64,000 nt of DNA from assembly GCA_039028435.1 (NCBI GenBank), contig JBCCIC010000001.1:396240-460239 (forward strand). Direction: 5' to 3'. The notes below the pieces were generated by a model that was given only the letters and a program-made list of their open reading frames with translations, was not told the origin of the DNA and did not search any database. Positions 3,873 through 21,985 of this stretch are shown here, piece after piece. Both the position numbers and the translations under genes were made by a program. This DNA comes from Actinomycetota bacterium. GTDB lineage: Bacteria; Actinomycetota; Acidimicrobiia; Acidimicrobiales; UBA10347. Numbering within the stretch: position 1 is the stretch's first letter; each line of letters begins with the position of its first letter.

Positions 3873-3905
3873 TGGTAGGCACTTGATGTAAGGCATACCA
3901 TACAA
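3873..3905 (+). promoter_or_regulatory. Two overlapping TAGG/TAAGG-type boxes (weak DtxR/IdeR-like) upstream of the binding-protein operon
   Basis: TGGTAGGCACTTGATGTAA (3873-3891) and TGTAAGGCATACCATACAA (3887-3905). The second is a 14/18 self-complementary palindrome. They lie in the divergent ALDH/PBP intergenic region. Confidence 0.35.
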
Positions 3906-3966: not shown

Positions 3967-5196
3967 ATGCCTCGTCGTCGTTTTCGTACGCTGATGACAC
4001 TCATCGGTGCCCTGGCACTGCTGGCTGCGGCTTGCAGTAGCGAACGGCCTGGCGGCGAAGCGGCCGCGGAATCGGCAAGCGAAGCCTCGGCGAGCGAGCC
4101 GTCCGAGAGCGCCAGCGCCGACGAAGCCAGCGGCGGCGAGGACAGCGCCGATGACGCTGACGACGCGGCATCCGAGCCCGAGCCCGACGTTGATCAGGAA
4201 GAGGACGGCGCTGACGAGGCAGCAGCCGACGAGGACGCCGCGGCAGAGCCGGAACCGACCGAGGAGCCAACACCGGAACCTGCACCCACCGAAGAGCCCT
4301 CGATCTACCCGATCACAATCAGTGATTCGTACGGCAACGAGTTCACCTTCGACGAGCGGCCCCGCATCGGGTGTGCGTGGTACGGCTGCATCGAAGCCGG
4401 CGCCGAGCTCGGTGTCACCTTTGAGGCGGCCATCATCACCGAGGAGGAAGCCGACTCGACGTTCTTCGGTGCGCTGCAGCCCGATGTCCTGATCGTCGAC
4501 TTCCTCAACCCCGAGGAGTGGGCCGCTGCCGACGTCGACCTCGTCGTCCTGAGTCCGGCGAGCAACACGCCCGAGCTGGATCCGATTCGCCAGGTGAACC
4601 CGCTCTTCTACCTCCACTACGACAACTTCCTCGCGCCGCAGTGGGAGGGCGTGATCGGTGGCTACGAGGGCTACCTCGAGAACCTGCGTCTCCTCGGCCA
4701 GCTGATGGATCGCACCGCCGAGGCCGAGGAAGCGATCGCCCGATTCGACCGGCTCGTCGAGAGCCTTGCCACCTACGCCACCCCGGAGATGGCCGACCAG
4801 ACGATCGCCATCATCGGTCTGCTCGGCTACGCCGCCCTCGGCCCCGGCAACGCCTTCTGCCAAATCCTCAACGAAGCCGGACACGGCACCTGCATCGGCG
4901 AGGGCGTCGCCCAGATTCTCAATGCCGAGGCCTTTCTGGCCCTCGATCCCGACGTGATCCTCGACCAGGATCCGGCGGCGCGAGACGGCGATCCGATCTG
5001 GCCGAACCTGTCGGCGGTCCAGGACGGCACCGTCTACGACATCGTGAGCAACCGGCACTACTGCTGCTCGACCAGCGGGCTGGTCCACGTGACCCAGGAG
5101 TACTTGAGCCTGCGCTTCCCGGACGCCGGCGTCGAGGATCCCGGTCCGGTCGAGGACTTCGACAGCCGACTTAGCCCTCTCGTCACCGAGGGGTGA
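3967..5196 (+). CDS. Lipoprotein, iron-siderophore (class III, FhuD/FepB-like) ABC substrate-binding protein
   Basis: Signal peptide plus lipobox (LLAAAC), then a ~90-aa Asp/Glu/Ala/Pro-rich linker, then a PBP-like body. It is the first gene of a FecCD/ATPase operon. Confidence 0.85.
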   Translation: MPRRRFRTLMTLIGALALLAAACSSERPGGEAAAESASEASASEPSESASADEASGGEDSADDADDAASEPEPDVDQEEDGADEAAADEDAAAEPEPTEEPTPEPAPTEEPSIYPITISDSYGNEFTFDERPRIGCAWYGCIEAGAELGVTFEAAIITEEEADSTFFGALQPDVLIVDFLNPEEWAAADVDLVVLSPASNTPELDPIRQVNPLFYLHYDNFLAPQWEGVIGGYEGYLENLRLLGQLMDRTAEAEEAIARFDRLVESLATYATPEMADQTIAIIGLLGYAALGPGNAFCQILNEAGHGTCIGEGVAQILNAEAFLALDPDVILDQDPAARDGDPIWPNLSAVQDGTVYDIVSNRHYCCSTSGLVHVTQEYLSLRFPDAGVEDPGPVEDFDSRLSPLVTEG

Positions 5197-6281
5197 CCGC
5201 GGTCGACGAGGCGGCGACCATCGGACCCGCCGACGGCAAGCCGTCGGTCGACGGGTCGACGGTTGCCGCTGGCCGCGCAACCCGACTCCTGGCCGCTGTC
5301 GGGCTCCTCACGATCGCCGTCGCCGCGCTCGTCCTCTACAACCTCACCCAGGGCGAGCCCGATCACTCGTTGTCGACCGCGCTCGACAATCTCCTTCGGA
5401 CGGGCCCGATCGCCGGCGACATCGACAGCATCCTGATCCGCGAGGTTCGCCTACCGCGCGTGCTGATGGCCCTCCTCGCCGGAAGCGCTCTGGGCCTGGC
5501 CGGGGTGTTGTTGCAGGACGCGCTCCGCAACCCGCTCGCCGATCCGACGCTGCTCGGCGTCGCCCAGGGTGCCGGTTTCGTGATCGCCCTCGCCTCGATC
5601 TACCCGGAACTGGTTCCGCCGCTGCCGACCTCGGTGCTGTGCTTCATCGGCGGAACCCTGGCCGGATCCGTGGTGCTCGTCTTGAGCCGTCGCTCGCGCA
5701 ACCCGGTGCGTGTGGTGCTGGCGGGCGCCATGGTGTCGATCCTCTTCGCAACCTTGTCGAGTGTGGTCATCCTCATCACGCCTCGAACACGGGGTCTCGG
5801 CATCATCGAGTACTTCCGGTTCGTGATCGGGTCGTTCATCGATGTCACCTGGGACAGCATCGGTGCTGTCCTGCCGTGGTTCCTCCTTGCCGTTCCGCTG
5901 GGGCTCGCCAGCGCCCGGATCGTGAACCTGCTCTCGCTGGGCGACGAAGCTGCGTCGTCGCTCGGACTCAACCCCGGCCGGGCCCGCATCGGTCTGATGA
6001 TCCTGTCGATGGCATTGGTGACCCCATACGTTGCCCAGATCGGCCCGATCGGTTTCGTGGCCCTGTTCGCACCACACGTCTCCCGAAGCCTCATCGCCAG
6101 CTCCGATGCGCTCCGAGTGATGATCACCTCGGCCTTCGCCGGCGCGCTCATGTTGCTGACCGCCGACACCGCGGCGCGGCTGCTGTTCTTCCCCTTCGAG
6201 GTCCCAGCGGGCGTGTTCACCTTCCTGATCGTCGGACCACTCGCGCTGGTCATCGTCGGTCGCCTCGGACGTAGTCGATGA
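5193..6281 (+). CDS. FecCD-family iron-siderophore ABC permease
   Basis: The GTG start overlaps the upstream stop (GTGA). Polytopic membrane protein with typical FecCD motifs (REVRLPRVLMALLAGSALGLAGVLLQ..RNPLADP). Confidence 0.9.
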   Translation: MTAVDEAATIGPADGKPSVDGSTVAAGRATRLLAAVGLLTIAVAALVLYNLTQGEPDHSLSTALDNLLRTGPIAGDIDSILIREVRLPRVLMALLAGSALGLAGVLLQDALRNPLADPTLLGVAQGAGFVIALASIYPELVPPLPTSVLCFIGGTLAGSVVLVLSRRSRNPVRVVLAGAMVSILFATLSSVVILITPRTRGLGIIEYFRFVIGSFIDVTWDSIGAVLPWFLLAVPLGLASARIVNLLSLGDEAASSLGLNPGRARIGLMILSMALVTPYVAQIGPIGFVALFAPHVSRSLIASSDALRVMITSAFAGALMLLTADTAARLLFFPFEVPAGVFTFLIVGPLALVIVGRLGRSR

Positions 6282-7360
6282 GTCTCACGGCCGACCGCGC
6301 GCCACGCGAGGCTGCGGCGGATCCACGCTGGAAGACGTCGCGTCTGATGACCGCATCCCTGGCGATCGCCATTCTCACGACCGGTCTCATCTCGCTGTGG
6401 TGGGGCACCGGCAGCGTGCGTATGTCACCGACGCGTGTGTGGACCGCTCTGACCGACGAAGACGCGGTCTTCCGCATTGAGGCCGTCGCCGCGGAGGCCC
6501 GCCTCGTGCGCGTGGTCATGGGCATTCTCGTCGGTGCATCGCTGGCGTCCGCCGGGGCCATGCTGCAGTCGCTCTATCGAAACCCGTTGGCCAGCCCCCA
6601 GATCACCGGCGTCACCCAAGGCTCCGTCGTGGCCGTCGTGATGTGGCTGCTCTACGGGCCGAACTCGGAATCGACGTGGGTGCTGCCGCTGGTCGGCGCC
6701 CTCGGCGGCGTGGGCACCGGGCTCCTGACCTATGGGATCTCCAAACTCGGCGGACGAGTCGATCCGCTGCGACTGATCTTGGTGGGCGTGTTGCTCGGCG
6801 GCTTGCTGTCGTCCATGACCGCGTTGGTACTGATCAGTGCTGATGGGGCGGGTTTGGACCTCATCTCGTGGACCGTGGGTTCGCTCCAGTCGGCGTCATG
6901 GTCACGCATCCGCTTGCTGGCGATCGCACTCCTGCTATGCATTCCGCTCATCCTGCTCGCCATCCCCTACGGCAATGCGCTCAACCTGGGTGAGGAGATC
7001 GCCCACGGTGCAGGGGTCTCGGTCAACCGAGGACGTGGCATCGTGCTGCTCGCTGCCGCCTCGATCACCGCGGCATCGGTCTCGCTCGTCGGCGGCATCG
7101 GGTTCATCGGCCTGGTCGCGCCCCACATCGTCCGGCGGTGGACCGGGGCAGATCTGCGTCGCCTCGTTCCCAACTCGGCCTTGTCCGGTGCCCTCCTCGT
7201 GCTCCTCGCCGACTTCGCTTCGCGGAACCTGCGACCGCGGGACGTTGCGTCGGCGCTCGGGGTCGCCGAGGAGGTTGCGCCGACCGCCCTTCCGACCGGA
7301 ATCTTCCTTGCGCTGATCGGCGCACCCTTCTTCATCCACTTGCTCAGGAGGACCCCGTGA
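6278..7360 (+). CDS. FecCD-family iron-siderophore ABC permease (second subunit)
   Basis: ATGA overlap with the upstream gene. FecCD motifs present (RLVRVVMGILVGASLASAGAMLQS..RNPLASP). Confidence 0.9.
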   Translation: MSLTADRAPREAAADPRWKTSRLMTASLAIAILTTGLISLWWGTGSVRMSPTRVWTALTDEDAVFRIEAVAAEARLVRVVMGILVGASLASAGAMLQSLYRNPLASPQITGVTQGSVVAVVMWLLYGPNSESTWVLPLVGALGGVGTGLLTYGISKLGGRVDPLRLILVGVLLGGLLSSMTALVLISADGAGLDLISWTVGSLQSASWSRIRLLAIALLLCIPLILLAIPYGNALNLGEEIAHGAGVSVNRGRGIVLLAAASITAASVSLVGGIGFIGLVAPHIVRRWTGADLRRLVPNSALSGALLVLLADFASRNLRPRDVASALGVAEEVAPTALPTGIFLALIGAPFFIHLLRRTP

Positions 7361-8175
7361 GCGCCGACGCACCTCCGTTGCTGAATGGTCTTGAGGCATC
7401 GGGCATCGCCGCCGGATACACGACCGACGTGCTGCACGACGTCGACCTTGCCGCGACCGAGGGCAGGGTCACCGCCCTCGTGGGCCCCAACGGTTCCGGC
7501 AAGTCGACCCTGCTCAAGGCCTGCGCCAATCTCCTCGAACGATCGACCGGAAGCGTGACGATCCAAGGCCAGGACATCGCCGAGCTGTCGACGCGGCAAG
7601 TGGCGACCAAGCTTGCACTGCTCCCCCAGGGTCCGAGCACGCCCCCGTACCTGACGGTTCGCGACCTGGTCGAACAGGGGCGGTTCGCACATGTCGGACC
7701 CCTCGGCATGCTGCGACGCCAGGACCATGCGGCCGTCACCGAAGCGATCTCGCTCGTCGGGCTCGAGAGCTTCGCCAATCGCGACGTCGATGCCCTCTCC
7801 GGCGGTGAGCGCCAGCGAGCGTGGCTCGCACTCGCCCTGGCTCAGGAAACGCCCGTTCTGGCCCTCGACGAGCCGACTACGTTTCTCGACATCGGTCACC
7901 AGTGGGAAGTCCTCGAACTGGTCAGGTCGCTCAACGAGGAACGCAACCTCACCGTGCTCATGGTGCTCCACGACCTCAACCACGCCGCATCCTTCTCGGA
8001 CCAATTGGTCGTGCTCGAACAGGGTCGGGTCGTCGCCGCCGGCGATCCGTGGGACACGCTCACCACCGAACTTCTCCGCGAAGTGTTCGGCGTCGAGGCC
8101 TCGATCATCGCCGACCCCAAGACCGATCGCCCACTGATCGTGCCCCACGCCGCCGCACCCCGCGGGACCAGATGA
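7357..8175 (+). CDS. Iron-siderophore ABC importer ATPase (FepC/FhuC-like)
   Basis: GTG 7357 overlaps the upstream TGA (GTGA). Walker A GPNGSGKST, signature LSGGERQR, Walker B LALDEPTTFLD. The track ORF start at 7138 lies inside the permease gene and was rejected. Confidence 0.9.
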   Translation: MSADAPPLLNGLEASGIAAGYTTDVLHDVDLAATEGRVTALVGPNGSGKSTLLKACANLLERSTGSVTIQGQDIAELSTRQVATKLALLPQGPSTPPYLTVRDLVEQGRFAHVGPLGMLRRQDHAAVTEAISLVGLESFANRDVDALSGGERQRAWLALALAQETPVLALDEPTTFLDIGHQWEVLELVRSLNEERNLTVLMVLHDLNHAASFSDQLVVLEQGRVVAAGDPWDTLTTELLREVFGVEASIIADPKTDRPLIVPHAAAPRGTR

Positions 8176-9935
8176 CCGCCATGATGGGTGGCGCAAGTGC
8201 GCCTCCCAGTCCCGGCTACGAGGCGACCGGTGGGGCCATCATCCGTTGGGCCCTCAAACGACAGTGGCGCTGGATCGCGCTCGGCGCGACCACCGGAATG
8301 ATCTGGATGGCCGGCTTCGCCGCTGCGCCGGTGCTGGTCGGCTACGCCATCGACGACGCGATCGATGGGCGCAGCGGCGCGAGGATGGCGATGTGGGCGG
8401 TCGCCTTCCTGGGCGTCGTGACCGCCAGCGCAATCGCGGGGGCGGTCCGACACCGCTGCGCCATCACACTGTGGGCCACCATCGGTCTTCTCGCCGAGGG
8501 CCACCTGACGCGACGAGTGCTGGACCGGCGAGGTGGCATCGATCGTCCGCCGGCCGAACTCGTCTCACTGGGCGTCGGCGACGCCAACAAGATCGGCAGA
8601 ATCGGTGATCTGACCAATCGTGGCGGTGGTGCGGTCGTGATGTTGGTGGTCGTCGCCGTGTGGCTGCTGGCGACCTCGGTTTCGCTCGGCCTCCTGGTTC
8701 TGATCGCGGTACCGATGTCGGCCGCCGCCATCCTCCCGTTCCTGTCTCGCTACGACGAACGCTCAACGGTGGAGCGGCGCGAGCTGGCATCTGCATCGGC
8801 GGCCGCGGCGGACGGCATCCAAGGCCTCCGAACCGCACACGGACTCGGAGGTGGTCGCCAGATACGGAGCTGGTTCCGCGAGCGCTCCGGGCTCATGCAC
8901 CGTTCGGCCCTGTCGCTCGTGCGAATCGAAGCCACACTCTTCGCCACCGTTGGCGCCATCCCGCTGCTGACCCTCGTGCCGGTCCTGTGGTACGGCGGCG
9001 TGCAAGTCCTTGATGGCACGATCTCCCCTGGAACCTTTGTCACCGTCGTCGGTCTCGCCCAGTTCTTGGCGATGCCCCTCCAGACCCTTGGCGAGGCGGC
9101 CGGAGTCGTCACAGCAGGACGTGCGTCAGCGCGCCGGATCGAGCAGATCGTGACGACCTCCGCATCGATCGACGCCGAAGCGGCGACCTCGACCGGGTCA
9201 GCGAGCGACAGCACCCTCCGAGGCGATCGATCGAACGCGTTCGCACTGCGCCTCGAAGCTGTGACGGTTGGGGAGCTCGGCCCAGTCGATCTCCAGGTGG
9301 CACGCGATGCGACGGTCGGGGTGGCCGCAGATCACCAGGCGATCGCCGCGCTGGCAGGGATCCTTGCGCGTCATCGGCCCAGTGGCGGTGGCACGATCCG
9401 CGTCGGCGCCGAGCGCCTCGACGAGATTCCGCTCGACGACGTGCACCACCGCCTCGTCGTCATCGACAGCGAACGCCCTTGGTTGCTCTCGGCCAGCCTG
9501 CTCGACAACCTGCGACTGGCCCGTTCCAGCGCAACGCGCGCCGATGCCGAAGCGGCGCTGCGCAACGCAGCATGCGACGAGATCCTCGCCCGAAGTGACG
9601 CGCTCGATCGGCTCATCGGCGAGCGAGGCTTGCAGCTGAGCGGTGGACAGCGCCAGCGGATCGCAACCGCACAGGCCTTGCTTGCGCCCGCCCAGATCGT
9701 CGCGTTGATCGAGCCGACCAGTGCGCTCGATGCTGCGACCGAATCGCTCTACGTCGAGCGGTTCATGGCCTCCGCCCGTCCGACCACCCTGCTACTCACC
9801 ACATCGCCTCGACTGCTCTCCGCCTGTGACGAGGTTGCGTTCATCCACAACGGCGTGGTCGCCAGGACGGCCAGCCATCACGAGCTCCTCGAGACCGAAC
9901 CGGCATACGGCCGTCTCGTACTGGGTGTCGAATGA
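8172..9935 (+). CDS. Exporter-fold ABC half-transporter with a fully degenerate nucleotide-binding site (IrtA/YbtP-like partner)
   Basis: ATG 8172 overlaps the upstream stop (ATGA). N-terminal TMD plus NBD. Walker A is absent (TVGVAADHQAIAAL), the Walker B Asp is lost (VALIEPTSALD) and the H-loop His is lost (LLLTTSPRL). The signature LSGGQRQR is intact. Confidence 0.85.
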   Translation: MTAMMGGASAPPSPGYEATGGAIIRWALKRQWRWIALGATTGMIWMAGFAAAPVLVGYAIDDAIDGRSGARMAMWAVAFLGVVTASAIAGAVRHRCAITLWATIGLLAEGHLTRRVLDRRGGIDRPPAELVSLGVGDANKIGRIGDLTNRGGGAVVMLVVVAVWLLATSVSLGLLVLIAVPMSAAAILPFLSRYDERSTVERRELASASAAAADGIQGLRTAHGLGGGRQIRSWFRERSGLMHRSALSLVRIEATLFATVGAIPLLTLVPVLWYGGVQVLDGTISPGTFVTVVGLAQFLAMPLQTLGEAAGVVTAGRASARRIEQIVTTSASIDAEAATSTGSASDSTLRGDRSNAFALRLEAVTVGELGPVDLQVARDATVGVAADHQAIAALAGILARHRPSGGGTIRVGAERLDEIPLDDVHHRLVVIDSERPWLLSASLLDNLRLARSSATRADAEAALRNAACDEILARSDALDRLIGERGLQLSGGQRQRIATAQALLAPAQIVALIEPTSALDAATESLYVERFMASARPTTLLLTTSPRLLSACDEVAFIHNGVVARTASHHELLETEPAYGRLVLGVE

Positions 9936-11821
9936 GCGGGGCCCCGGGCGAGTCGCGAGCGTCGGAGGAGTCGGAACGTCGCGTGAGCGCCGCCGACGAG
10001 CTTCCCTTGGCATCGCCGTCGGTCGTCCGCGGCTGGGTACGCGACTTCGTCGGGCGGCGACGGCGCAAAGCCGTCGGTGTGCTCGTCCTGCTGGTGATCA
10101 CCACGGCGGCCTTCGCCTCGATTCCCGGCATCATCGGCGTGGCCGTCTCCACCGTCACCGACGGAGGCGACCGCGGTGACCTCGCACTGCTCGCCGCGGT
10201 CATGGTTGCGGTGACCGTCGTGATGATGATCGGCACCTACTTCGGACGCAACGCCGCGGCCGAGTTCGGCGAGTCGATCCTGGACGAGCTGCGGTTGCGG
10301 GTCTACGACGCCACGGTTGCGCTCCCCGGATCGGTCGTCGAGTCCGTCGGCACCGGCGAGCTCGTCGCACGCACGACCGGCGATGTCGAAACGCTCGCTG
10401 GCGCGACACGGAACGCGATCCCGGTGGTCTTGTTCACGACACTCGGTGCCGCCGGGAACGTCATCGCCATGGCCATCGTCGACGTGCGTCTGGCTGCGGT
10501 GGCGGTCATCACCGGAACGGCGGTATCTGCGCTTGGTGTCCGCTGGTACCTGCGCACTGCGGCGGCTCGCTACGAGCGCGAGCGCCAAACGGAATCGAGC
10601 CGCTCGGGTGCATTGCTCGAGCGCTACTCGGGCCGCGCGACGCTCTGGGCGTTCGGGGCCACCGGCACGAGCTATCAGGCGCTCGCCGCCTGCGGCGACG
10701 AACGAGTCGCCTCACAGCTCGCGACCGCACACGCCCGCAACCGGCTTCGGGTCTCACTGCGCGTCGGCCAGGGCGTAGCACTCGGTGTCGTCGTGATGCT
10801 CGGCGCGTACTTCCTGCGCACCGGTTCACTCTCGGCCGGTGCCATGACCGCTGCGACGCTCTACACGCTGCGGCTGATGGACCCGGTCACCGCACTGCTC
10901 GAGCAACTCGACTCGCTCCAACAGGCGCAGGCATCGCTCCGACGGATCGCCGGCGTGGTCGAGCTGAGCGAGGCCAACGACCGCATCGCGCCCTGGCCCG
11001 AGATCGATGCGCCGGCCCGCCGCGGCGGGCTCGAGGTACGCGTGGAGAACGTGACATTCGGCTACGAGGCGAACCTGCCGGCACTCGAGCAGATCGACCT
11101 CACCATTCCTGCCGGCCAGCGCGTGATGGTCGTCGGACCGAGCGGCGCGGGCAAGAGCACGCTCGCCGGCCTGATCTGCGGAACTCAGCTCCCGTGGACC
11201 GGCTCGGTCTGTGTCGACGACGTTGACGTGGGACCAATTCGTCGGGATGAACTCCGGGCGCGAGTGGCTCTGGTCGCCCAGGAGACCCACACCTTCGAAC
11301 GTTCGATTCGAGACAACGTGTCGATCGGTCGGCCGGCCGCCGACGATGACGAGATCACCGAGTGCCTCCAGAAGACCGGAGCGTGGTCCTGGATCGCCGA
11401 CCTGCCCGACGGCCTGGACACCATCGTTTCGAACACCCATCCGGCGATGACCGCGGCGCGAGCCCAGCAGCTCAACCTCGCACGGGTCATCTGTCTCGAC
11501 CCCCAAGTGGTCGTCCTCGACGAAGCCACCGCCGACCTCGACTTGCTGAGTGCCGGCCAGGCAGAACGACAACTCGGCGCGATCCTCCACGACCGCACCG
11601 TCGTGTGGATCGCGCACCGCCTGGACAACGCACCGCGACTCGACCGCGTGATCATGATCGCGGACGGGAGGATCGTCGACGACGGCCCCCACGATCAGCT
11701 GATCGCGCGAGACGGCCCCTATGGCCGGCTGTGGGACGCATGGCGCGCCGCCCATGGCGGGACCTCATCCCGTGCCTCCGACCGCACCCCCACGCACTCC
11801 CCCGACGACCAACCCGCTTGA
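9932..11821 (+). CDS. Exporter-fold ABC half-transporter with a canonical ATPase site but a degenerate signature motif (IrtB/YbtQ-like partner)
   Basis: ATGA overlap with the upstream gene. Walker A GPSGAGKST, Q-loop VAQETHTF, Walker B VVLDEATADLD and H-loop IAHRL are canonical. The LSGGQ position reads MTAARAQQ. Confidence 0.85.
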   Translation: MSGAPGESRASEESERRVSAADELPLASPSVVRGWVRDFVGRRRRKAVGVLVLLVITTAAFASIPGIIGVAVSTVTDGGDRGDLALLAAVMVAVTVVMMIGTYFGRNAAAEFGESILDELRLRVYDATVALPGSVVESVGTGELVARTTGDVETLAGATRNAIPVVLFTTLGAAGNVIAMAIVDVRLAAVAVITGTAVSALGVRWYLRTAAARYERERQTESSRSGALLERYSGRATLWAFGATGTSYQALAACGDERVASQLATAHARNRLRVSLRVGQGVALGVVVMLGAYFLRTGSLSAGAMTAATLYTLRLMDPVTALLEQLDSLQQAQASLRRIAGVVELSEANDRIAPWPEIDAPARRGGLEVRVENVTFGYEANLPALEQIDLTIPAGQRVMVVGPSGAGKSTLAGLICGTQLPWTGSVCVDDVDVGPIRRDELRARVALVAQETHTFERSIRDNVSIGRPAADDDEITECLQKTGAWSWIADLPDGLDTIVSNTHPAMTAARAQQLNLARVICLDPQVVVLDEATADLDLLSAGQAERQLGAILHDRTVVWIAHRLDNAPRLDRVIMIADGRIVDDGPHDQLIARDGPYGRLWDAWRAAHGGTSSRASDRTPTHSPDDQPA

Positions 11822-11831
11822 GGAGCAATCC

Positions 11832-12914
11832 ATGACCGACACCTTCGATGCGGAGACGATCGATCAGATCGAGCTCATCCTCGACGTGATCAACAGCCAA
11901 TACGCCGACACCTTCGCCTTCGTGAGTCGGTGGGCCGAGGCCGACGACGCCATCACTTCGGCGAACCTGCTGACCATCGACCCACGCGGCGCGGATGCCG
12001 AGGTCACGACCGAGGCTGGAACGCGTGCGGTGCGACTCGACTTCGGTGAGACCATCCTCGGCCTCGAACAACTCGAGCACGCCATGTTCGGATTGCTGGA
12101 GCAGGCACGAGCAGCCCGGCCGACCGATCCCTTGACATCGATCGAGCTCCAGTTCGAACGCACGGAGCACCAGCCGACCCATCGCTGCACGATCCTCGCC
12201 GTCGAAGAGCTGAACGAGCGGCTGCGGGCCTTCACGGTCGGTCCGGTTCCTGGTTGGGTGGACCTCGGTGGCGATCAGTCCATGACCCTATTTCTCGACC
12301 TGCCCGGTCGGCCGATCCCCGACGACATCCGGCTCTCGACATTCCGGGAGATGCACGACGATGTTCGACCCAAAGGTGCGACCTATTCGATCCGACGCCA
12401 CGATCCCGATCGGTCGACGGTCGAGGTCTGGGTCGTTCTGCATGGCGACGATCCCCACACCATCGGTGGGTGGGCGGCCGACGCAACGGTCGGCGATGCC
12501 ATCACCCTGTGGGGTCCGAGGCGAGCCGGTTCGACAAGCGATCGCGCCCAGCGATTCCTCGGCGTCTGCGACGAGACCGGGTTGGCCGCGACGCTGGCGA
12601 TCGTCGACGAATTGGACCCGGGGGTGCCCGTCGACCTGGTCGTCGAGGTCACCGACGCGGAGGCCGAGTTCCAGCTGACGCAACGAGATGGTGTGACGGT
12701 CCACTGGTGTCACCGCGGCACTGACGAGCCCGGCACCGGGACGCGGCTCCTCGACCGCGTACGTGAACTCGTGACCGAGCGGGACGACGCGATGGCCGCG
12801 TTCGGCGCATCCGAGTCTCGAGCCATCACGGCCGTTCGCAAGTACCTCCGGCGCGAGCTGGACATGCCGGCGTCGGCCGTGTCGCTCACCGGGTACTGGC
12901 GTCGAGCGAAGTGA
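11832..12914 (+). CDS. Siderophore-interacting protein (SIP/ViuB-type ferric-siderophore flavoreductase) with an N-terminal extension
   Basis: ATG 11832 is preceded by GAGGAG. The C-terminus ends in the SIP-typical ..AVRKYLRRELDMPASAVSLTGYWRR. The FNR-like FAD/NAD halves follow a ~110-aa N-terminal domain. Confidence 0.8.
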   Translation: MTDTFDAETIDQIELILDVINSQYADTFAFVSRWAEADDAITSANLLTIDPRGADAEVTTEAGTRAVRLDFGETILGLEQLEHAMFGLLEQARAARPTDPLTSIELQFERTEHQPTHRCTILAVEELNERLRAFTVGPVPGWVDLGGDQSMTLFLDLPGRPIPDDIRLSTFREMHDDVRPKGATYSIRRHDPDRSTVEVWVVLHGDDPHTIGGWAADATVGDAITLWGPRRAGSTSDRAQRFLGVCDETGLAATLAIVDELDPGVPVDLVVEVTDAEAEFQLTQRDGVTVHWCHRGTDEPGTGTRLLDRVRELVTERDDAMAAFGASESRAITAVRKYLRRELDMPASAVSLTGYWRRAK

Positions 12915-12934: not shown

Positions 12935-13699
12935 TCAGCCGGCAGCGCGCCGTCCGACGGCCGCGACGTAGCCGTCGTCGAGCACCAGTGTGTCGCCGCG
13001 GGCTTCGCAGCGCTCCGCCAGCTCGCCGCGAAGACGCGACCGAGCCACCTCCCAGACACCGCGCGCCTCGGCCTCGTCGCGGAGTAGTCGTAGACCGCCC
13101 GCAGCCGTGGTCAGCGTCTGGACGGCGTCGTCGAGATCCGTGAAGTTCCAGGTGAGCGTGGATCGGACAGCGTCGGTGTCGACGAAGCCTGCGTTGGCCA
13201 GAAGGCCGACCGCACGGTCGCCCTCCCCCAGCGTCGTAGCGAAGGGTTTGGCGGGATTGTCGAGCGCCTCGGCCAGAATTGCGCGACATGCGCCAGGCCA
13301 CCCACCGGGTAGCCACGTGGTGAAGGCGAACCGGCCGTCGTCAAGCAACACCCGATAGGCCTCCCGCGCGGTCGCTGCCGGATCGGGAGCGAAGATCACG
13401 CCGAAGTTGGAGATCGCCGCACCGAAAGTCTGCGCAGCGAACGGCAGCTCCTGAGCGTCGCCGATCGCTGAGCGATGCCCGGCGCGACACGCGGCGGCGA
13501 CCTGAGAGGCAGCCAGGTCCACCCCGACTGCGCTCCAGCCACGATCACGTGCCGCATCGAGACCGGTGCCGATACCGGCACCGACGTCGAGAACCCGGTC
13601 CGCGGTCGGTCCGACGAGATCCAGGAGCACCTCGTTGGCCGGCGCAACGTGGCGCGCCATGACCCCGTAGCGCGACCATCTCGCTTCGTCGACCGTCAT
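12935..13699 (-). CDS. Class I SAM-dependent methyltransferase
   Basis: Motif I VLDVGAGIGTG. ATG 13699 overlaps the stop of the upstream flavoprotein (ATGA). The upstream part of the 507-aa track ORF is Arg/Pro-rich shadow sequence. Confidence 0.8.
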   Translation of the reverse strand: MTVDEARWSRYGVMARHVAPANEVLLDLVGPTADRVLDVGAGIGTGLDAARDRGWSAVGVDLAASQVAAACRAGHRSAIGDAQELPFAAQTFGAAISNFGVIFAPDPAATAREAYRVLLDDGRFAFTTWLPGGWPGACRAILAEALDNPAKPFATTLGEGDRAVGLLANAGFVDTDAVRSTLTWNFTDLDDAVQTLTTAAGGLRLLRDEAEARGVWEVARSRLRGELAERCEARGDTLVLDDGYVAAVGRRAAG

Positions 13700-15096
13700 G
13701 TCCAACCCGCCTCGGCAAGGGCGCTCAGGTTGGCGACCGCAGGCTCGACGCTCTCGAGCATCAGCGTCAGCGATTCCATCACCGCGGGGTCGTCGAAGTG
13801 TTCGGCCATCGACCGGGTGGGGTTGAGTCGAGCCTGCTGTGACCAGGCCGCGATGTCCGGATGGTCGCGCCGAGCACCCTCGGCTTCGAGGCCGGCGGCG
13901 AGGATACGCAGCTGGTCGGCGATCAAACCCGTGCGGGGCACCGGAGGACAGAGCCGGTTGCGCTCGTCGTCGTCGATGTCCAGGGTCTCGACGAAGCCGA
14001 GAATCGCCGCGCTCCAGGGAGCGACGCCCAGGGTCGTGAACTGCACATCGATCCGACCCTCGGCGTAGATCGGTGACGTTGGTGCCGTCGCCAGGCCTTG
14101 CGCCGTGCAGTTGACATGCACCGTCCTGGCCGAGGTCGGGACGTCGGCTTCGTCGAGCTGGATCGAGTGCGGCCCAATGCTGCGAACGCGACCATGCCGC
14201 ACCACCTGCTCCACCATGCGCAGGATGGCGAGTTCTTCCCGGGCGATGACCGCGCCGCGGTACGTCAGCGCCTCGAACGCCGGGTCCACGCGGCACATCA
14301 TGCCGTGGTCTTCGAGCTGGCGGGCGAACGACTGACCCGACTGCGCGGTGCCACAGGCCTCGATCGTCCGCGCCTGATACGCAACCATCGACCCGACGAG
14401 GTCGAACGGCTGGGTGTGGGCCCGATCGACGAGCCAGGCGTCCCGCGGACGCACCCAACGGATCCGATCGGGTTCGACGCCCTGGCCGATCAACCAGACG
14501 ACGGTGTCCATCGCCGTCTTGCCGGCACCGATGATCACGAAGCCGTCGGCCGGCTCATCGAGATGAGTCAACTCGTTCGGTGCGACGACACACATGTCGT
14601 CGTCGTACGCGAACGGCGGCGCATGGCGCGAGGGCACCTCGCTGGCGACGATCGTGGCGTTGACGACACGCCGAGCGACCGCGACTTCGGTCGTGGTTCC
14701 ATCGAGTCGCGACACCAGCTGATGGCGCCCGGATGACTCGCCTCGGTAGTCGACCATCGGCATCCAACGAACTCGGCCCGATGCCATCAAGTCGTCGAGC
14801 ACTGAGCGGTAATACGAGGCGACCTCGTGTCCCGTAGCCCGCTCGTAGAAACCGTCGTTGATCCCACCGACATCGATGCGGTCGTTGCCGAGTGGGCGAG
14901 AGTTCACGCCGTAGTAGGCGCTCGGTTGATGCAGGCGCACGAATGGGTACGCGTCGACCCAGTGGCCACCCGGCTCGTGACGCCGATCGGCCAGCGTGAC
15001 GGTGGCGTCGCTGTGGCGAACGATCTCGTCGGCGACGGCAAGCCCGGACGCTCCGGCCCCGACGATCAGGTAGTCCGTGGTTTCAACTTTTGTCAT
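13696..15096 (-). CDS. FAD/NAD(P)-binding oxidoreductase (flavin monooxygenase-like, two dinucleotide-binding folds)
   Basis: N-terminal DYLIVGAGASGLA...GGHW and a second GxGxxA motif (VIIGAGKTAMD). No finer family assignment is possible by eye. Confidence 0.75.
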   Translation of the reverse strand: MTKVETTDYLIVGAGASGLAVADEIVRHSDATVTLADRRHEPGGHWVDAYPFVRLHQPSAYYGVNSRPLGNDRIDVGGINDGFYERATGHEVASYYRSVLDDLMASGRVRWMPMVDYRGESSGRHQLVSRLDGTTTEVAVARRVVNATIVASEVPSRHAPPFAYDDDMCVVAPNELTHLDEPADGFVIIGAGKTAMDTVVWLIGQGVEPDRIRWVRPRDAWLVDRAHTQPFDLVGSMVAYQARTIEACGTAQSGQSFARQLEDHGMMCRVDPAFEALTYRGAVIAREELAILRMVEQVVRHGRVRSIGPHSIQLDEADVPTSARTVHVNCTAQGLATAPTSPIYAEGRIDVQFTTLGVAPWSAAILGFVETLDIDDDERNRLCPPVPRTGLIADQLRILAAGLEAEGARRDHPDIAAWSQQARLNPTRSMAEHFDDPAVMESLTLMLESVEPAVANLSALAEAGWT

Positions 15097-15107: not shown

Positions 15108-16277
15108 CTACTCGGTCGGTTCCAGGTCGAAAATCGCGCCCAGATCATCGAGGATGGCGTGGGCCCCGAAGAAGCCGACCCCCGACATCCAGCGATCGTC
15201 GGACACCGCGTACACGTTGCCGGAGCTCACGGCGCCAAGGGTGTCCCAGAGCGGGCTGCCCAGCAGTTGTTCGACCCCGGCCTCGACGTCTTCATTGGGG
15301 AAGGTCGCATAGACGAGCACGTCGCCATCGGCGAGGTCCAGTTCCTCTTCACTGATGACCCGGATGAACTCGTCGGGGTCCTGTTGACTCGGCGGACGAG
15401 CGAGACCTGCGTCGCCGAGTACCACACCACTGAAGCTGTTCGGTTGGTAGAGCCGAATCACGTCGACGAACCGCACCACCGAGATCGTCGGCGAGTCGTA
15501 CTGCTCGTTGATCGCTGCGCCGACTGCGGCGGCGCGAGCCTCGTAGGCGACCAGGACCTCCTCTGCCAAGTCTTCTCGTCCGCTTGCGGCCGCGCCAAGA
15601 CGGATCGAGTCCTTCCAGCCGGCGCCCGCCGACTCGCTCATCACCGTGGGTGCGATCTGCGCGAGCTCGCCGGCGATGTTCTCGTGGCGGACCACGCTGG
15701 TCAAGATGAGATCCGGCTGTGCCGCGGCGATGAGCTCGAGATTCGGTGCGAACAGGTCGCCCATCCAGACGGCATCAGCCCCGAAGGTTTCCGCGGCCTC
15801 GCCGTAGAGCTCAGGCAGCGGCCCGTTCGGGTCCGAGAAGGTCGTGTACCCGACGACCTGGAGTTCGAGGGTAAAGGCGACGTCGAGCATGGACTGGTCG
15901 AGCACCACGACCCGCTGCGGCGCCACTGGGATCTCGACCGGTCCGAGCGCGGTTTCGACGGTTCGAGGAAAGACCGGCGGAACGGTTGGTTCCGGCGATG
16001 GCTCCGCGGTCGGCTCGGGGGCAGCGTCGATGTCGGGATCGGTGTCGGCTGCGGGATCGGTGTCGGCTGCGGGATCGGCGTCGCTAGCAGCCTCAGGTGC
16101 CGACGTCGGTGCCGGTGTCTCCGTCGGCGCCGGTTGCGAGTCACTGGCCGCTGAGGCCGTTTCGGCGCCGTCACCGGCATTGGCATCGGACCCGGCACAA
16201 CCGGTGGCGAACAGGAGCAGGAGCGAGAGCACCACTGCCCGGAATGCCCGGAATGCCGCGATGCGAGAGGAGGCCAT
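15108..16277 (-). CDS. Lipoprotein, iron-siderophore class III ABC substrate-binding protein
   Basis: Signal peptide plus lipobox (LFATGC), an acidic Pro/Ala/Asp linker containing a tandem repeat, and a PBP body (..GPVEIPVAPQRVVVLD..). Confidence 0.85.
   Translation of the reverse strand: MASSRIAAFRAFRAVVLSLLLLFATGCAGSDANAGDGAETASAASDSQPAPTETPAPTSAPEAASDADPAADTDPAADTDPDIDAAPEPTAEPSPEPTVPPVFPRTVETALGPVEIPVAPQRVVVLDQSMLDVAFTLELQVVGYTTFSDPNGPLPELYGEAAETFGADAVWMGDLFAPNLELIAAAQPDLILTSVVRHENIAGELAQIAPTVMSESAGAGWKDSIRLGAAASGREDLAEEVLVAYEARAAAVGAAINEQYDSPTISVVRFVDVIRLYQPNSFSGVVLGDAGLARPPSQQDPDEFIRVISEEELDLADGDVLVYATFPNEDVEAGVEQLLGSPLWDTLGAVSSGNVYAVSDDRWMSGVGFFGAHAILDDLGAIFDLEPTE
16035..16088. repeat. 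3 x 18-bp in-frame tandem repeat inside the binding-protein linker
   Basis: gggatcggtgtcggctgc occurs twice exactly, then a diverged third copy. It encodes DPAADT-DPAADT-DP on the minus strand. Confidence 0.9.
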
Positions 16278-16301: not shown

Positions 16302-16320
16302 TAAGGTTTCCCTAACATAA
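16302..16320. promoter_or_regulatory. DtxR/IdeR-type iron box candidate in a divergent promoter region
   Basis: TAAGGTTTCCCTAACATAA matches TTAGGTTAGCCTAACCTAA at 15/19 positions (hand count). It is an AT-rich island between the binding-protein gene (-) and the ABC operon (+). Confidence 0.55.
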
Positions 16321-16369: not shown

Positions 16370-18142
16370 ATGGCCACCACCGACGAGTCCGACGTCGACT
16401 CGAAACCGGAACCCGACCAGATCGGCCTCGGAGAACTCCTCGCTCCGGTCCGAAACCAACTCATCCTCGCCTGCGTCTTCCAGGCGATCGGCGCACTGGC
16501 CGGCATCGTGCCGTTCATCGCCGTGGCCGAGATCGGGCGGGAACTACTCGGCGATCGCGACTCCGACCGACTCTGGACCATCGTCATCATCGCTGCCGTC
16601 GCCCTGGCGATCCGTGTGGGTTGCTTCTTCGCCGCTGCGGGCATCACCCACTTCGCCGACAACGACTTCCAGCTCGCCATCCGGCGCCGCATCGCGGAGC
16701 ACCTCGGTCGACTGCCACTCGGCTGGTTCGACGACAACGATGCCGGCACCGTCAACAAGCTCATCGCCGACGACGTCTCAGCCATGCACCCGATCGTCGG
16801 CCACACCTTCATCGACATCACGAACACCGTCGTCACCGCCATCGCGTCGATCATCTACCTCTTCGTCATCGATTGGCGGATGGCACTGGTGGTGCTCATC
16901 CCCTTCGTCGCCGGCATCTTCCTCTACGCCAAGCAGATGTCGGGCTACGGCGAGAAGATGGAGCAGTACAACCAGTCGATGGCCGACGTGAACACGGCCA
17001 GCATCGAGTTCGTGCAGGGCATCGCCGTCGTCAAGACGTTCGGCCAGACCGGCCGGGCGCACAAGCGCTACAAGACGAGCACCGATTCGTTCATCCAGTC
17101 CTTCTGGGACTGGGTCAAGGGTCTGCTGAACATTGCCTCCCTGAGCGACATCGTGCTTTCCCCGCTGACCACGCTCACCCTCGTGCTCGGCGCGTCGGCG
17201 TGGTTCATCGATCGCGGCACCCTCGAGGTCGCCGACATCCTGGTGTTCCTCAGCCTCGGTCTTGCGCTCACCATGCCGATCCTGACCCTGGGGTTCGCGG
17301 GCAACGAGGTCCAACTGGCCAGTGCGGCGGCAGGCCGAATCGGTCGGGCGCTCGCCGAGAAGCCACTGCCCCAGCCCACCGACCCGCAGATTCCGCTCGA
17401 AGACGACCTGCGCCTCGAAGGCGTGACGTTCTCCTACGGTCCCGATGAGCCGGTCGTGCTCGACGATGTCAGCCTGGCGTTCGAGCCCGACACGGTCACG
17501 GCCATCGTCGGCGCGTCGGGTTCGGGCAAGACGACCCTGGGCCGACTGCTGTGTCGGTTCTGGGATCCGACGGGCGGATCGATTCGTCTCGGCGGTGTCG
17601 ACCTCCGCGACATCGAATCCGAGGAGCTCTACGCGCGGGTGGGATTCGTCTTCCAGAACGTGCAGCTCATTCGTGGCACGATCGCCGACAACATCCGGCT
17701 TGCCGATCCCGAGGCTCCGCAGTCGCAGGTCGAAGCCGCCGCCCAGGCCGCCCAGATTCACGACCGGGTCATGGAACTGCCCGACGGTTACGAATCGGTG
17801 ATCGGGGAGAACGTCTCGCTTTCGGGGGGCGAGCGGCAGCGCTTGTCGATCGCCCGGGCGCTCATCGCCAATCCGCCGATTCTCGTGCTCGACGAGGCGA
17901 CCGCATTCGCCGACCCGGAGTCGGAGGCCGCGGTCCAGGACGCACTGTCGACCCTCGTCGCCGGACGAACCCTGATCGTGATCGCTCATCGGCTCTCCAC
18001 GATCACGCAGGCCGACCAGATCGTCGTCCTCGACGAAGGCAGGGTGGTCGAGACCGGCACCCACGCCGACCTCCTCGATGCCGGCGGTACGTATCAGAAA
18101 CAGTGGGCCGCAGACGCCCGAGTCACCGCTGAGGTCGGATGA
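16370..18142 (+). CDS. Exporter-fold ABC half-transporter (IrtA/YbtP-like), canonical NBD
   Basis: TMD plus NBD with [28 protein letters not shown] and IAHRLST. Confidence 0.9.
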
Positions 18143-19875
18143 TGCTTCGCTCACTCGCCAAACTCGTCGCCGACCCCACGGCGTTCCGCTCCTCCGTCGC
18201 TGGCATGGTCGCAACCGCGATCCTCCAGGGCATCGGCTTCGTGCTCCTCGTGCCCGTGCTTCGTGCCCTCATCGAGGGTGACAACGGTCGCGCCGCCTGG
18301 TGGCTGCTCGCCATGGTTCTGGCGCTCGTGGTGTTCGGCGTCCTCCGCCACGTGAGCCAGATTCAGGCGTATCACACGGCGATCGACGGGGGCCGAGCCC
18401 TCTTCGGCCGGCTCGGCGACAAGGTCTCCACCCTGCCACTCGGATGGTTCGACAGCGACCGCGTCGGCTCACTCAGCCGGATCACCGGCCAGGGAGTCAT
18501 CGATGTCATGGGCGTGCCGGCCCACCTGCTTCGAGCCGTGGTCACCGCCGTCACGACCCCGGTCGTCGTGGCTGTGATCATGTTCGCCTTCGACTGGCGT
18601 CTCGCGCTCGCGATGGTGCTCGCCCTTCCCGTCGCGTGGGTGGTGCTGCGCTGGGCAAGCAACCGCACCCAACGCTCGGAGCATCGGACGCACCACGCGT
18701 CGGCCGAAGCGACCAGTCGCGTGGTGGAATTCGCGCAGACCCAGGCGGTGCTCCGCAGTTGCGGTCGGACGGTCGACGGCTTTGCGATGCTCGACGACGC
18801 ACTCGTGGAGCGACGCAATGCCGGACGCAAGCTGATGGTCAACGCCGTTCCCGGATTGATCGGCTTCAGTGCCGTCGTGCAAGCCGCATTCGTCGCCCTC
18901 CTGGTCGTCGGAACGACGATTGCGGTGGGCGGATCGGTCGACGTACCCGAGCTCGTCGCCGTGCTGATCCTCGCCGTTCGGTTCATCGAGCCGCTCATCT
19001 TGGCGTCGGACATCTCCGGCGCGATCAAGATCGCCGAGAACGCCATCGACCGGGCGGAGACCCTGCTGGAGACACCCGTCCTGCCCGAACCGGCCTCGTC
19101 GACTCGGCCGACCGACGCCTCGGTCACGTTCGACGACGTGAGCTTTGGGTACGGCGATGACATCGTGATCGACGAGGCGTCGTTCACGATCGCCGCCGGT
19201 TCGATGGTGGCCCTCGTGGGACCCTCGGGTTCGGGCAAGACGACGATCGCCCGCCTCATCGCGCGGTTCTGGGACACCGACGAAGGGACGGTCGCCATCG
19301 GCGGGGTCGACGTGCGTGACATGTCCACGACTGACCTGATGGAGCAGGTGTCGATCGTCTTTCAGGACAACTACCTGTTCGCGGGCACGATTGAGGAGAA
19401 CGTCCTGCTCGCGAGACCCGAGGCGTTGCGAGCGGACCTCGAGCGGGTGGCCGCGCTCACCCGGCTCGACGAAGTGATCGAACGACTTCCCGCCGGATGG
19501 GAGAGCCCGGTCGGCGACGGCGGAACCCGCCTTTCCGGCGGTGAACGCCAGCGGGTGACCTTGGCTCGCGCCCTACTCAAGGACGCCCCGGTCATCCTCC
19601 TCGACGAAGCCACCGCAGCGATCGATCCGGCGAACGAGCAGGTGATCCAGGCCGCCATCGACAGCCTCCGCGGCAAGCACACGCTGATCGTGATCGCCCA
19701 CCGGTTGTCGACGATCGCATCGGCCGACGAGATCCTGGTGCTCGACGACGGTCGGATCGCCGAACGCGGTGGGCACGAGGATCTCCTCGCAGCCGGTGGC
19801 CGGTACGCGTCGTTCTGGCATCAGCGCGATCGAGCCTCCGGCTGGCGACTCGAGCGCAGCGGCGCAATGCCGTGA
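18139..19875 (+). CDS. Exporter-fold ABC half-transporter (IrtB/YbtQ-like), canonical NBD
   Basis: ATGA overlap with the upstream gene. [28 protein letters not shown] and IAHRLST. Confidence 0.9.
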   Translation: MMLRSLAKLVADPTAFRSSVAGMVATAILQGIGFVLLVPVLRALIEGDNGRAAWWLLAMVLALVVFGVLRHVSQIQAYHTAIDGGRALFGRLGDKVSTLPLGWFDSDRVGSLSRITGQGVIDVMGVPAHLLRAVVTAVTTPVVVAVIMFAFDWRLALAMVLALPVAWVVLRWASNRTQRSEHRTHHASAEATSRVVEFAQTQAVLRSCGRTVDGFAMLDDALVERRNAGRKLMVNAVPGLIGFSAVVQAAFVALLVVGTTIAVGGSVDVPELVAVLILAVRFIEPLILASDISGAIKIAENAIDRAETLLETPVLPEPASSTRPTDASVTFDDVSFGYGDDIVIDEASFTIAAGSMVALVGPSGSGKTTIARLIARFWDTDEGTVAIGGVDVRDMSTTDLMEQVSIVFQDNYLFAGTIEENVLLARPEALRADLERVAALTRLDEVIERLPAGWESPVGDGGTRLSGGERQRVTLARALLKDAPVILLDEATAAIDPANEQVIQAAIDSLRGKHTLIVIAHRLSTIASADEILVLDDGRIAERGGHEDLLAAGGRYASFWHQRDRASGWRLERSGAMP

Positions 19876-20602: not shown

Positions 20603-21985
20603 TCAGCCTGGGCTGGGCTCGTGCCTATGACCGTGTTCGTGCCCGTGCTCGTGACCATGGCGATGCACCCGCAGCGGAATCCGGTGCTCTGCGTGGACGT
20701 GACCGTGTGAACCCCAGTGAACGTGGAGATGACTGTGCTGGTGCGCGACCCGCTCGCGGTCGATGTCGGTTGCATCGATTGCCAGCCGTTGGAACAGCAT
20801 CACGAGCGTCCACAGGACTGCACCCACGATCGCGCCGAGCGTGAGCGTCGGACCGAGCGCAAGATCGGCGAGGCCGATCCCGATCATGACGGCGCCGAAT
20901 GCGAGCCGACCACCGAGGCTGGCCAGCGACAGGAAGCTCGCCCGCGCCTGGCGATCGATGTGACGGCCGACGATTGCGGGTGCAATGACCGACGCCGACG
21001 CCCGCGGTAGCACGCGGAGCGGAAGCAGCGCGAGGATCCACGGTGAGATGGTGAGCGCCATCACCACGAGCACGGCGACGGGAACGACCGCCGCGACGAC
21101 GAGCGTCGTCACCGAACCGAAGCGATCCGCCATCGCCGGTACCCGCGACACGATGAACGCACCCATGAGTGCGGCCGCCGCAGCCGACACGCCCGTGATC
21201 AGCGCCGCGTCGCGCAACGACGAAGCACCGATCGACTCGGCCAGGTACGGGCCTGACAGGTCGGCGACCAGATGGATCACCACCACCTGGAACACGAGGT
21301 AGACCGCAACCCACAACAGCGCAGGGTGCCGCAGTCCGCGAGCGATCCCGAACCGTCCAGATTCGGCCGTCTCGCTCGGCGATCCGCTCAGCGCCGTGTC
21401 ATCAGCGGGCTCGCCGGGCACAGCCGGTTCGACGAGGCGGGATGCAACGATCCCCTGCGCACAGGCAGCCAGCGCAGACAACGCAAACGGCACCCGCAGA
21501 TCGATCAGGCCCACCGCGCCACCGAGCAGCGCCGATCCGGCGGTGACGAGCAGGAGTCGTTGTCGGGACCTCGCTTCACGCTCGACGAACTCATCGCTGC
21601 GACCGAGCGCTTCGAGCGTGTCGAAGTGGAAGGTCACGTCGGTGCCGGACAGAAACGCGTAGCCGGCGGCCAGTAGGACCTGGGCGGCCAGCAATCCAGC
21701 CACGTTCGGCGCGAACACAAAGGTGAGATGACTCGCGATCCAGGTGCCGGTCACGAGCCGAAGCGCGAGCACGCGTCCCAGGCGATCGCTGAGCCAGCCG
21801 GTTGGCAACTCGAGGACCACAACAGCGATGTAGTACACGGCCTGCACGGACAAGGCGCGGGCGAAGCCGAGCTCCTCGACGAGGAAGAGGACGATCGTCG
21901 GCATCCAGAAGAGCGCGCCCGCGAACATCTGATGGAGCGGGTAGAGCCGCAGGTTGTTCTCGAGTCGCGCGCTCACGCCACCCAC
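20603..21985 (-). CDS. MFS transporter with a histidine-rich C-terminal tail
   Basis: About 12 hydrophobic segments and an MFS-type loop (GWLSDRLGR). The last 48 residues contain 17 His (..HQHSHLHVHWGSHGHVHAEH..HRHGHEHGHEHGHRHE..). Confidence 0.8.
   Translation of the reverse strand: MGGVSARLENNLRLYPLHQMFAGALFWMPTIVLFLVEELGFARALSVQAVYYIAVVVLELPTGWLSDRLGRVLALRLVTGTWIASHLTFVFAPNVAGLLAAQVLLAAGYAFLSGTDVTFHFDTLEALGRSDEFVEREARSRQRLLLVTAGSALLGGAVGLIDLRVPFALSALAACAQGIVASRLVEPAVPGEPADDTALSGSPSETAESGRFGIARGLRHPALLWVAVYLVFQVVVIHLVADLSGPYLAESIGASSLRDAALITGVSAAAAALMGAFIVSRVPAMADRFGSVTTLVVAAVVPVAVLVVMALTISPWILALLPLRVLPRASASVIAPAIVGRHIDRQARASFLSLASLGGRLAFGAVMIGIGLADLALGPTLTLGAIVGAVLWTLVMLFQRLAIDATDIDRERVAHQHSHLHVHWGSHGHVHAEHRIPLRVHRHGHEHGHEHGHRHEPSPG

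Follow-up and report, generated by a model that had tools for sequence, protein, structure and literature searches.

In models of asymmetric ATP-binding cassette (ABC) exporters (TM287/288, TmrAB, BmrCD, CFTR, TAP and Rv1273c/72c), the ATP at the degenerate site holds the two nucleotide-binding domains (NBDs) together and primes the consensus site allosterically. The NBD dimers of ABC transporters adopt a head-to-tail geometry (PMC7756269). In the classical heterodimers (TM287/288, TmrAB, BmrCD, LmrCD, EfrCD, PatAB), the degenerate site retains an intact Walker A and A-loop and has ATP bound; it usually differs by the replacements Glu to Asp and His to Gln and by a mild alteration of the signature (PMC7756269, PMC12038006). 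Yeast Pdr5, with a Lys to Cys replacement, is counted among the largest known deviations (PMC7756269). Here we describe two adjacent genes for ABC half-transporters, subunit 1 (Sub1) and subunit 2 (Sub2), in a stretch of 64,000 nucleotides from an Actinomycetota bacterium of the order Acidimicrobiales (assembly GCA_039028435.1, contig JBCCIC010000001.1, positions 396,240 to 460,239 of the forward strand), hereafter called the window. We consider it likely that the two subunits assemble into an obligate heterodimeric type IV ABC transporter with a single nucleotide site, which at this locus would serve a role in siderophore-iron traffic. All coordinates are 1-based positions in the 64-kb window and those of the main features are collected in Table 1.

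Both subunits match PF00664 as well as PF00005, the combination that marks type IV (exporter-fold) ABC half-transporters. Their motif states come from a deterministic reading of the sequence and not from statistical motif calls. Besides ABC_membrane, Sub2 matches ABC_tran across the full profile (83.7 bits) and has canonical cis motifs throughout: A-loop VTFGY, Walker A GPSGAGKST, Q-loop VAQET, Walker B VVVLDEAT and H-loop IAHRL. Its D-loop reads ADLD, its X-loop is altered (VSNTH) and its signature has become MTAARAQQ. Sub1 combines ABC_membrane with a weak, N-terminally truncated ABC_tran match (33 bits, profile positions 28-137). Its A-loop aromatic is deleted (LEAVTVG-ELG, compared with VTFGY), Walker A has disappeared, and the Q-loop lacks its Gln (VVIDSERPW). 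In Walker B, IVALIEPT (9696-9719), Ile stands in place of the Asp, the catalytic Glu remains and a Pro comes next; the H-loop has no His. The X-loop (GERG), the D-loop (SALD) and the signature LSGGQRQR are intact. The first-pass annotation of this stretch had reported the missing Walker A, Walker B Asp and H-loop His of Sub1 next to a perfect signature, the perfect cis motifs of Sub2 next to a degenerate one, and from these a consensus site paired with one that is degenerate on both faces. Alignment bears this out, and the losses in Sub1 are larger than had been listed, as the A-loop aromatic and the Q-loop Gln are gone too.

Given the head-to-tail geometry, the cis motifs of Sub2 and the trans motifs of Sub1 complete one site; its reciprocal counterpart has defects on both faces. 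The live site would draw its A-loop, Walker A, Q-loop, Walker B and H-loop from Sub2, and Sub1 would close it in trans with its signature, X-loop and D-loop. At the other composite site both faces would be vestigial, in a Sub1 NBD that is predicted to keep its fold. Because the cis motifs of Sub1 are lost and the signature of Sub2 is replaced, this dead site most likely binds no nucleotide, and one ATP per cycle is the most likely stoichiometry. The dead Sub1 domain could then act as a structural or allosteric fixed partner, which would close the live site and couple to its own transmembrane domain.

An AlphaFold2 model of the Sub1 monomer, computed from the family alignment, has a predicted local distance difference test (pLDDT) score of 89.9, above 90 in the NBD blocks, and a predicted template modelling (pTM) score of 0.83. 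It shows long transmembrane helices and an NBD, and superposes on TmrB, TM287 and Sav1866. In place of the canonical P-loop of 7-8 residues, the model has a strand (381-385), a two-residue turn and a helix (388-398). By motifs and model alike, Sub1 lacks the Walker A P-loop that degenerate sites keep, and by its motifs also the A-loop aromatic. The top Foldseek matches of the model are TmrB, TM287 and BmrC (TM-score ~0.75-0.8), and the solved chains nearest to Sub1 are these three and MsRv1273c (8wcx_A, 8wcw_A, 9iqg_A; 20% identity), all of which we take to be the degenerate-domain subunits of their pairs. The best half-transporter match of Sub2 in the PDB is MsRv1272c (8wcw_B, E 1e-56), the consensus subunit (PMC12038006). 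Since the nearest structures share these subunit roles, polarity and gene order appear to be inherited from classical degenerate-site heterodimers.

The motif states of Sub1 recur in 14 orthologues (46-61% identity, all from metagenome-assembled genomes (MAGs) of Actinomycetota), which excludes a sequencing error. They also appear in ~40 remoter homologues (28-35% identity) of Streptomyces, Rhodococcus, Frankia, Parafrankia, Kribbella, Catellatospora, Saccharothrix, Actinomadura, Amycolatopsis and Kitasatospora, as well as in type strains in culture whose genomes are complete. Between orthologues, the dead NBD is 46-50% identical, the transmembrane domain of Sub1 50-59% and the live NBD 52-58%; the dead NBD, being so close to the other domains, is therefore under purifying selection. 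The partner is conserved as well. We compared 14 other paired loci, those of R. opacus (two loci), S. flavochromogenes, Saccharothrix luteola, two Streptomyces sp., Amycolatopsis halotolerans, Actinomyces denticolens, S. antibioticus, three MAGs, Nocardioides luteus and Cellulomonas flavigena DSM 20109. In each, a dead Sub1 precedes a Sub2 whose Walker A, Q-loop, Walker B and H-loop are canonical and whose signature has the form [LMIV][TS]x[AP][QR]AQQ, and the two genes typically overlap by 4 bp. In contrast, three classical Streptomyces loci have Walker A GATGSGKTT, Walker B LDDP, H-loop AHRP and a partner signature ISAGQRQL.

These data bear on the explanation by which Sub1 would be a pseudogene in decay or an artefact of assembly, with Sub2 working alone as a homodimer. 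The weak ABC_tran score of Sub1 and its slightly low GC content at third codon positions (GC3, 0.78 compared with 0.80-0.86 in neighbouring genes) would agree with decay. However, the Sub1 reading frame is intact and translationally coupled on both sides, its motif states are those of orthologues and of complete genomes of cultured type strains, the dead domain is about as conserved as the transmembrane domains, and no part of the protein is better conserved than its signature, X-loop and D-loop. Moreover, both sites of a Sub2 homodimer would be without a functional signature. We regard this explanation as very improbable. The two ways out that the first-pass annotation had named thus fall away: a sequencing or assembly error is contradicted by orthologues and distant relatives with the same motif states, and separate homodimers by the complementarity of the subunits, their constant adjacency, their translational coupling and their occasional fusion.

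An exhaustive profile search of 1.84 billion representatives (clustered at 50% identity) gave an impression of how far the family extends. We used the best 150 Sub1 matches, all with E < 1e-157, of which 97 are single half-transporters; the family counts below refer to these 97. Walker A is missing in 95, the signature SGG is present in 95, and 93 keep SGGQ and lack the H-loop His. Across the family a short xDPxxA helix cap stands where the P-loop was, the Walker B region has the form hhhh[HVD][ED]PT[ST]A[VL]D (Pro in 93, the final D-loop Asp in 95) and the H-loop position reads T[TS]SP (Ser in 91, Pro in 88). The residue at the Walker B Glu position differs by clade: IEPT in the clade of the window, with Glu kept and Asp lost, HDPT in Streptomyces and Rhodococcus, and VEPT or DEPT in Nocardioides. 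On the Sub2 side, [TS]x[AP][QR]AQQ replaces LSGGQ in 119 of the 120 best homologues, and in four lineages the D-loop, on the side of the dead site, has degenerated to ADAG or AEAG. A near-invariant D-loop in Sub1, at the live site, against a decayed one in Sub2, at the dead site, fits the proposed division into trans and cis roles. Read from these sequences, the dead-site state is not peculiar to the host genome and is the defining state of a large actinobacterial family. A scan of genome contigs with the back-translated signature LSGGQRQR returned mostly unrelated ABC transporters from all phyla and gives no census of the family, whose only members there are L004-L008, L014 and L026.

An alternative is that ATP or another nucleotide is still held non-canonically at the degenerate site, as a regulatory "glue" like that of TM287/288, BmrCD and Rv1273c/72c. 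All characterised degenerate sites bind ATP (PMC7756269, PMC12038006), the Walker B Glu of Sub1 is kept and the helix after the former P-loop is still present. Against this, a P-loop is missing here and in 95 of the 97 family representatives, Sub1 has also lost its A-loop aromatic, Q-loop Gln, Walker B Asp (a Mg2+ ligand) and H-loop His, and the opposing signature is without the Gly-Gly that touches the gamma-phosphate. We therefore judge nucleotide "glue" to be quite unlikely in this pair.

Food for thought is why the motifs that replaced the lost ones are themselves conserved. As this holds on both faces, the former pocket may now serve as a nucleotide-independent contact. One possibility is that the dead pocket is re-used as a permanent NBD-NBD latch, or as a surface for docking or ligand binding, for instance of the co-encoded reductase, so that the dimer would hinge around one ATP. 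T[TS]SP, hhhh[HVD][ED]PT[ST]A[VL]D and [TS]x[AP][QR]AQQ are conserved at 80-98% in lineages that are ~30% identical overall, which is not what random drift would leave, and in one state of MsRv1273c/72c the NBDs are dimerised at an empty degenerate site (PMC12038006). However, part of this conservation is due to the trans-acting D-loop of Sub1 and to fold constraints, and the siderophore-interacting protein (SIP) is absent from most family loci. As an explanation of the window pair such re-use seems rather improbable, if less so than the "glue". In a broader form, the pairs would make up a widespread one-nucleotide class in which the second pocket has been rebuilt into a nucleotide-independent latch or docking surface with conserved new motifs; we put this forward tentatively.

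Returning to the single-site heterodimer, most matches of ~1200 aa in the profile search are classical degenerate-site fusions, with Walker A intact, LDDAT and a partner signature LSAGQRQL. Fusions as a proof of heterodimerisation are weak, as the clear dead-type cases, P0176 and P0122, are singletons on short Logan contigs. Among the fusions, the cluster P0264 from Nocardia brasiliensis alone is robust, and its form is intermediate. In the classical-type fusions P0205, P0217, P0172 and P0264, the Walker A of the N-terminal half is partly eroded (for example IVARTAAGSS, LTGAPGSGAA and VVGARPELAA). The occurrence of such fusions suggests a continuum from the classical to the fully dead site.

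We searched for earlier descriptions of the family. No curated NCBIfam model reaches its cut-off, the best being TIGR02204 with 153 bits for Sub1 and 273 bits for Sub2 against a cut-off of 780, and no chain in the PDB search belongs to the dead-site family. A literature search for the family, for complete loss of Walker A and for single-site ABC exporters did not find it, with subscription literature largely outside its coverage. The sole case that it brought up is ABCB5-beta, which has a truncated human N-terminal nucleotide-binding domain. ExiT from the exochelin cluster might be a characterised member; the literature gave no sequence-motif information on it, and it remains a lead only. The family of dead-site pairs is widespread and apparently undescribed.

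The second part of our proposal concerns iron. The pair lies in a run of plus-strand genes (3967-12914) that are separated by overlaps or by a single 10-bp gap. FecE, which has a GTG start preceded by AGGAGG, ends in an overlap with the Sub1 start (ATGA), Sub1 and Sub2 share the same 4-bp overlap, and the SIP gene starts with ATG, behind a GAGGAG ribosome-binding site, 10 bp past the Sub2 stop. The box ahead of the operon has four mismatches to TWAGGTWAGSCTWACCTWA and is the second-best match in the whole window. Only two sites in the 64 kb have five or fewer mismatches to this consensus (3884-3902 and 16302-16320), each at the promoter of a siderophore operon; at three or fewer mismatches, none is expected by chance in the window. 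As the pair is co-operonic with a siderophore importer and a SIP reductase under an IdeR-like box, we place it in siderophore-iron traffic. Some relatives have comparable surroundings. The pair of L084 adjoins genes for a binding protein (43% identical to the orthologous lipoprotein at 3967-5196), two FecCD permeases and FecE, in this order, and that of L085 adjoins genes for a SIP and an FhuF-like protein. L003 has MbtH and nonribosomal peptide synthetase (NRPS) genes together with FecCD-FecCD-FecE next to the pair, and L001 has formyltransferase and NRPS genes. An iron role is well supported at the window locus and extends to the NRPS-linked clade, not to the whole family.

With regard to direction, the pair could expel the de-ferrated siderophore after its reduction in the cytoplasm, or it could import the ferric siderophore as IrtAB does. 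The SIP gene directly downstream parallels IrtAB and speaks for import. The operon already holds a complete type II importer and the NRPS-linked relatives need an exporter; on these two points, efflux or recycling of the siderophore is slightly favoured over import. The order importer, pair, reductase suggests a module in which a siderophore is imported, reduced and recycled.

Several points weigh against the single-site heterodimer with an iron role. The absence of nucleotide binding at the dead site is drawn from the sequence and a monomer model. The catalytic Glu and the D-loop of Sub1 are retained, so that a residual or non-canonical ligand contact is possible. The two dead-type fusions on short Logan contigs could each stem from a single indel at the ATGA overlap. 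No iron genes were found at the loci of L086, Nocardioides luteus and Cellulomonas flavigena. Finally, the complete type II importer in the operon argues against import without proving export.

Table 1. Features of the Sub1/Sub2 operon and of the second siderophore locus in the window.
Feature	Position	Strand	Basis and remarks
IdeR/DtxR-like iron box TGATGTAAGGCATACCATA	3884..3902	.	~65 bp 5' of the first gene of the operon
Siderophore-binding lipoprotein (Peripla_BP_2)	3967..5196	+	Pfam PF01497; signal peptide, lipobox LAAAC; start and lipobox read from translation
FecCD-type permease 1, type II siderophore importer	5175..6281	+	Pfam PF01032, E 6e-69
FecCD-type permease 2	6278..7360	+	Pfam PF01032, E 1e-76
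FecE/FhuC-type importer ATPase	7357..8175	+	Pfam ABC_tran, E 9e-31
Sub1, type IV ABC half-transporter with predicted pseudo-ATPase NBD, 587 aa	8172..9935	+	Pfam, AlphaFold2, motifs
Sub1 Walker A remnant TVGVAADHQAIAAL	9312..9353	+	Alignments: no GxxGxGK[ST], no P-loop, one residue shorter than canonical
Sub1 signature LSGGQRQR, perfect	9636..9659	+	Proposed to act in trans on the Sub2 ATP site
Sub1 Walker B remnant and D-loop IVALIEPTSALD	9696..9731	+	Alignments
Sub1 H-loop replacement TTSPRL, no His	9798..9815	+	Family motif T[TS]SP
Sub2, type IV ABC half-transporter, sole complete cis ATP motif set, 629 aa	9932..11821	+	Pfam, motifs
Sub2 degenerate signature MTAARAQQ	11447..11470	+	Faces the dead site; family motif [TS]x[AP][QR]AQQ
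SIP ferric-siderophore reductase, FAD_binding_9 and SIP	11832..12914	+	PF04954 E 1e-26, PF08021 E 1e-12
Second siderophore-binding lipoprotein	15108-16277	-	Divergent from the IrtA-like gene
Best IdeR-like box of the window	16302-16320		Between second binding protein and IrtA-like gene, shared promoter region
Separate SIP reductase of the IrtAB-like pair, 240 aa	19872-20594	+	Overlapping downstream gene, unfused to IrtA

A second pair of half-transporters, 4.5 kb downstream of the first (16370-19875, +), had been put forward in the first-pass annotation as a paralogue with canonical motifs and as an internal contrast. It is indeed canonical in all motifs and serves as a contrast. It is not a close paralogue: at 20-26% identity to the first pair it is an IrtA/IrtB orthologue (E ~1e-128 to IrtA structures), and we rejected the reading that it is a recent paralogue.

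A number of further features of the window, whose GC content is high (65-68%), are worth recording. The SIP reductase that follows Sub2 (open reading frame 11721-12914, +) has an N-terminal extension of ~150 residues without a counterpart in the 240-aa SIP of the IrtAB-like pair; it gives a weak match to DUF2470 (E 0.0075, under cut-off). In the subclade of the window, a gene for an S-adenosylmethionine-dependent methyltransferase recurs beside the dead-site pair: at 12935-13720 (-) in the window, at 12473-13267 in L085, where it shares 54% identity with the window copy and runs into the end of Sub2, and at 8139-8891 in L086, directly upstream of the pair. The second binding lipoprotein carries a long, repetitive linker rich in Asp, Pro, Ala and Thr past its lipobox (DADPAADTDPAADTDPDIDAAPEPTAEPSPEPT), and the first one has a similar acidic linker. 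Beside the IrtAB-like operon, a major facilitator superfamily (MFS) transporter (20603-21985, -) ends in a histidine-rich C-terminal tail (HQHSHLHVHWGSHGHVHAEH...HRHGHEHGHEHGHRHE), which suggests metal binding. A third type IV ABC half-transporter (2-1723, +), cut by the window start, has fully canonical Walker A, signature, Walker B and H-loop; a partner, should it have one, is encoded beyond the window.

A conserved family with a pocket that is predicted to be unable to hold nucleotide would be a natural test of whether the second ATP is essential, and of a one-ATP cycle. If the pairs do form a class with a rebuilt, nucleotide-independent second pocket, occupancy of the second site would be dispensable for alternating access, and the "ATP glue" would be an evolutionary intermediate rather than a requirement. 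Additionally, about half of the proteins annotated as "ABC transporter ATP-binding protein" in such pairs probably bind no ATP. Members occur in siderophore NRPS clusters of Streptomyces and Rhodococcus, and also in Nocardia, Actinomyces, Nocardioides and Cellulomonas, which offers tractable, cultured sources.

How does the pair compare with described transporters? Among iron systems, IrtAB and YbtPQ are likewise type IV heterodimers in iron-regulated siderophore loci, and the gene context of the window pair, with a SIP gene and an IdeR-like box, agrees with the reductase and the iron regulation known from them. IrtAB shares the link to a SIP-type reductase, which is fused to IrtA and is the next gene at the window pair. 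However, IrtAB and YbtPQ have two canonical ATP sites. Neither is among the 60 best PDB sequence matches of Sub1 or Sub2, and by this measure the pair is not specifically related to them. Closer at hand is MsRv1273c/72c (PDB 8wcw and others; PMC12038006), which is actinobacterial, includes the closest solved half-transporter to Sub2 and has the same arrangement, with the degenerate subunit first and then a longer consensus subunit with an N-terminal extension. It differs in that Rv1273c retains Walker A, with ATP or AMPPNP at the degenerate site, and in that it is described as an isoniazid efflux pump and lies outside any siderophore operon (PMC12038006).

In the extent of the deviation, the pair resembles yeast Pdr5 and ABCG5/G8, in which all motifs of one site deviate on both faces (PMC7756269). 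These are eukaryotic full-length or heterodimeric proteins with the type V/ABCG fold, and unlike in Sub1 their P-loop persists, with its Lys changed to Cys or to Arg, and their site is regarded as one that binds nucleotide (PMC7756269). With the classical heterodimers the pair shares adjacent half-transporter genes, the same fold, one consensus and one non-catalytic site, and deviations in one NBD's cis motifs and in the other's signature; complementary consensus and non-consensus sites from adjacent genes, as expected of such heterodimers, are indeed what we found. It departs from them in that P-loop, A-loop aromatic, Q-loop Gln, Walker B Asp, H-loop His and signature Gly-Gly are missing together. 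The claim that the pair is more extreme than known asymmetric exporters is therefore upheld, as the described degenerate sites keep Walker A and bind ATP (PMC7756269, PMC12038006). The dead state probably represents the conserved end-point of the erosion of a classical heterodimer of the TmrAB, TM287/288, BmrCD or Rv1273c/72c type.

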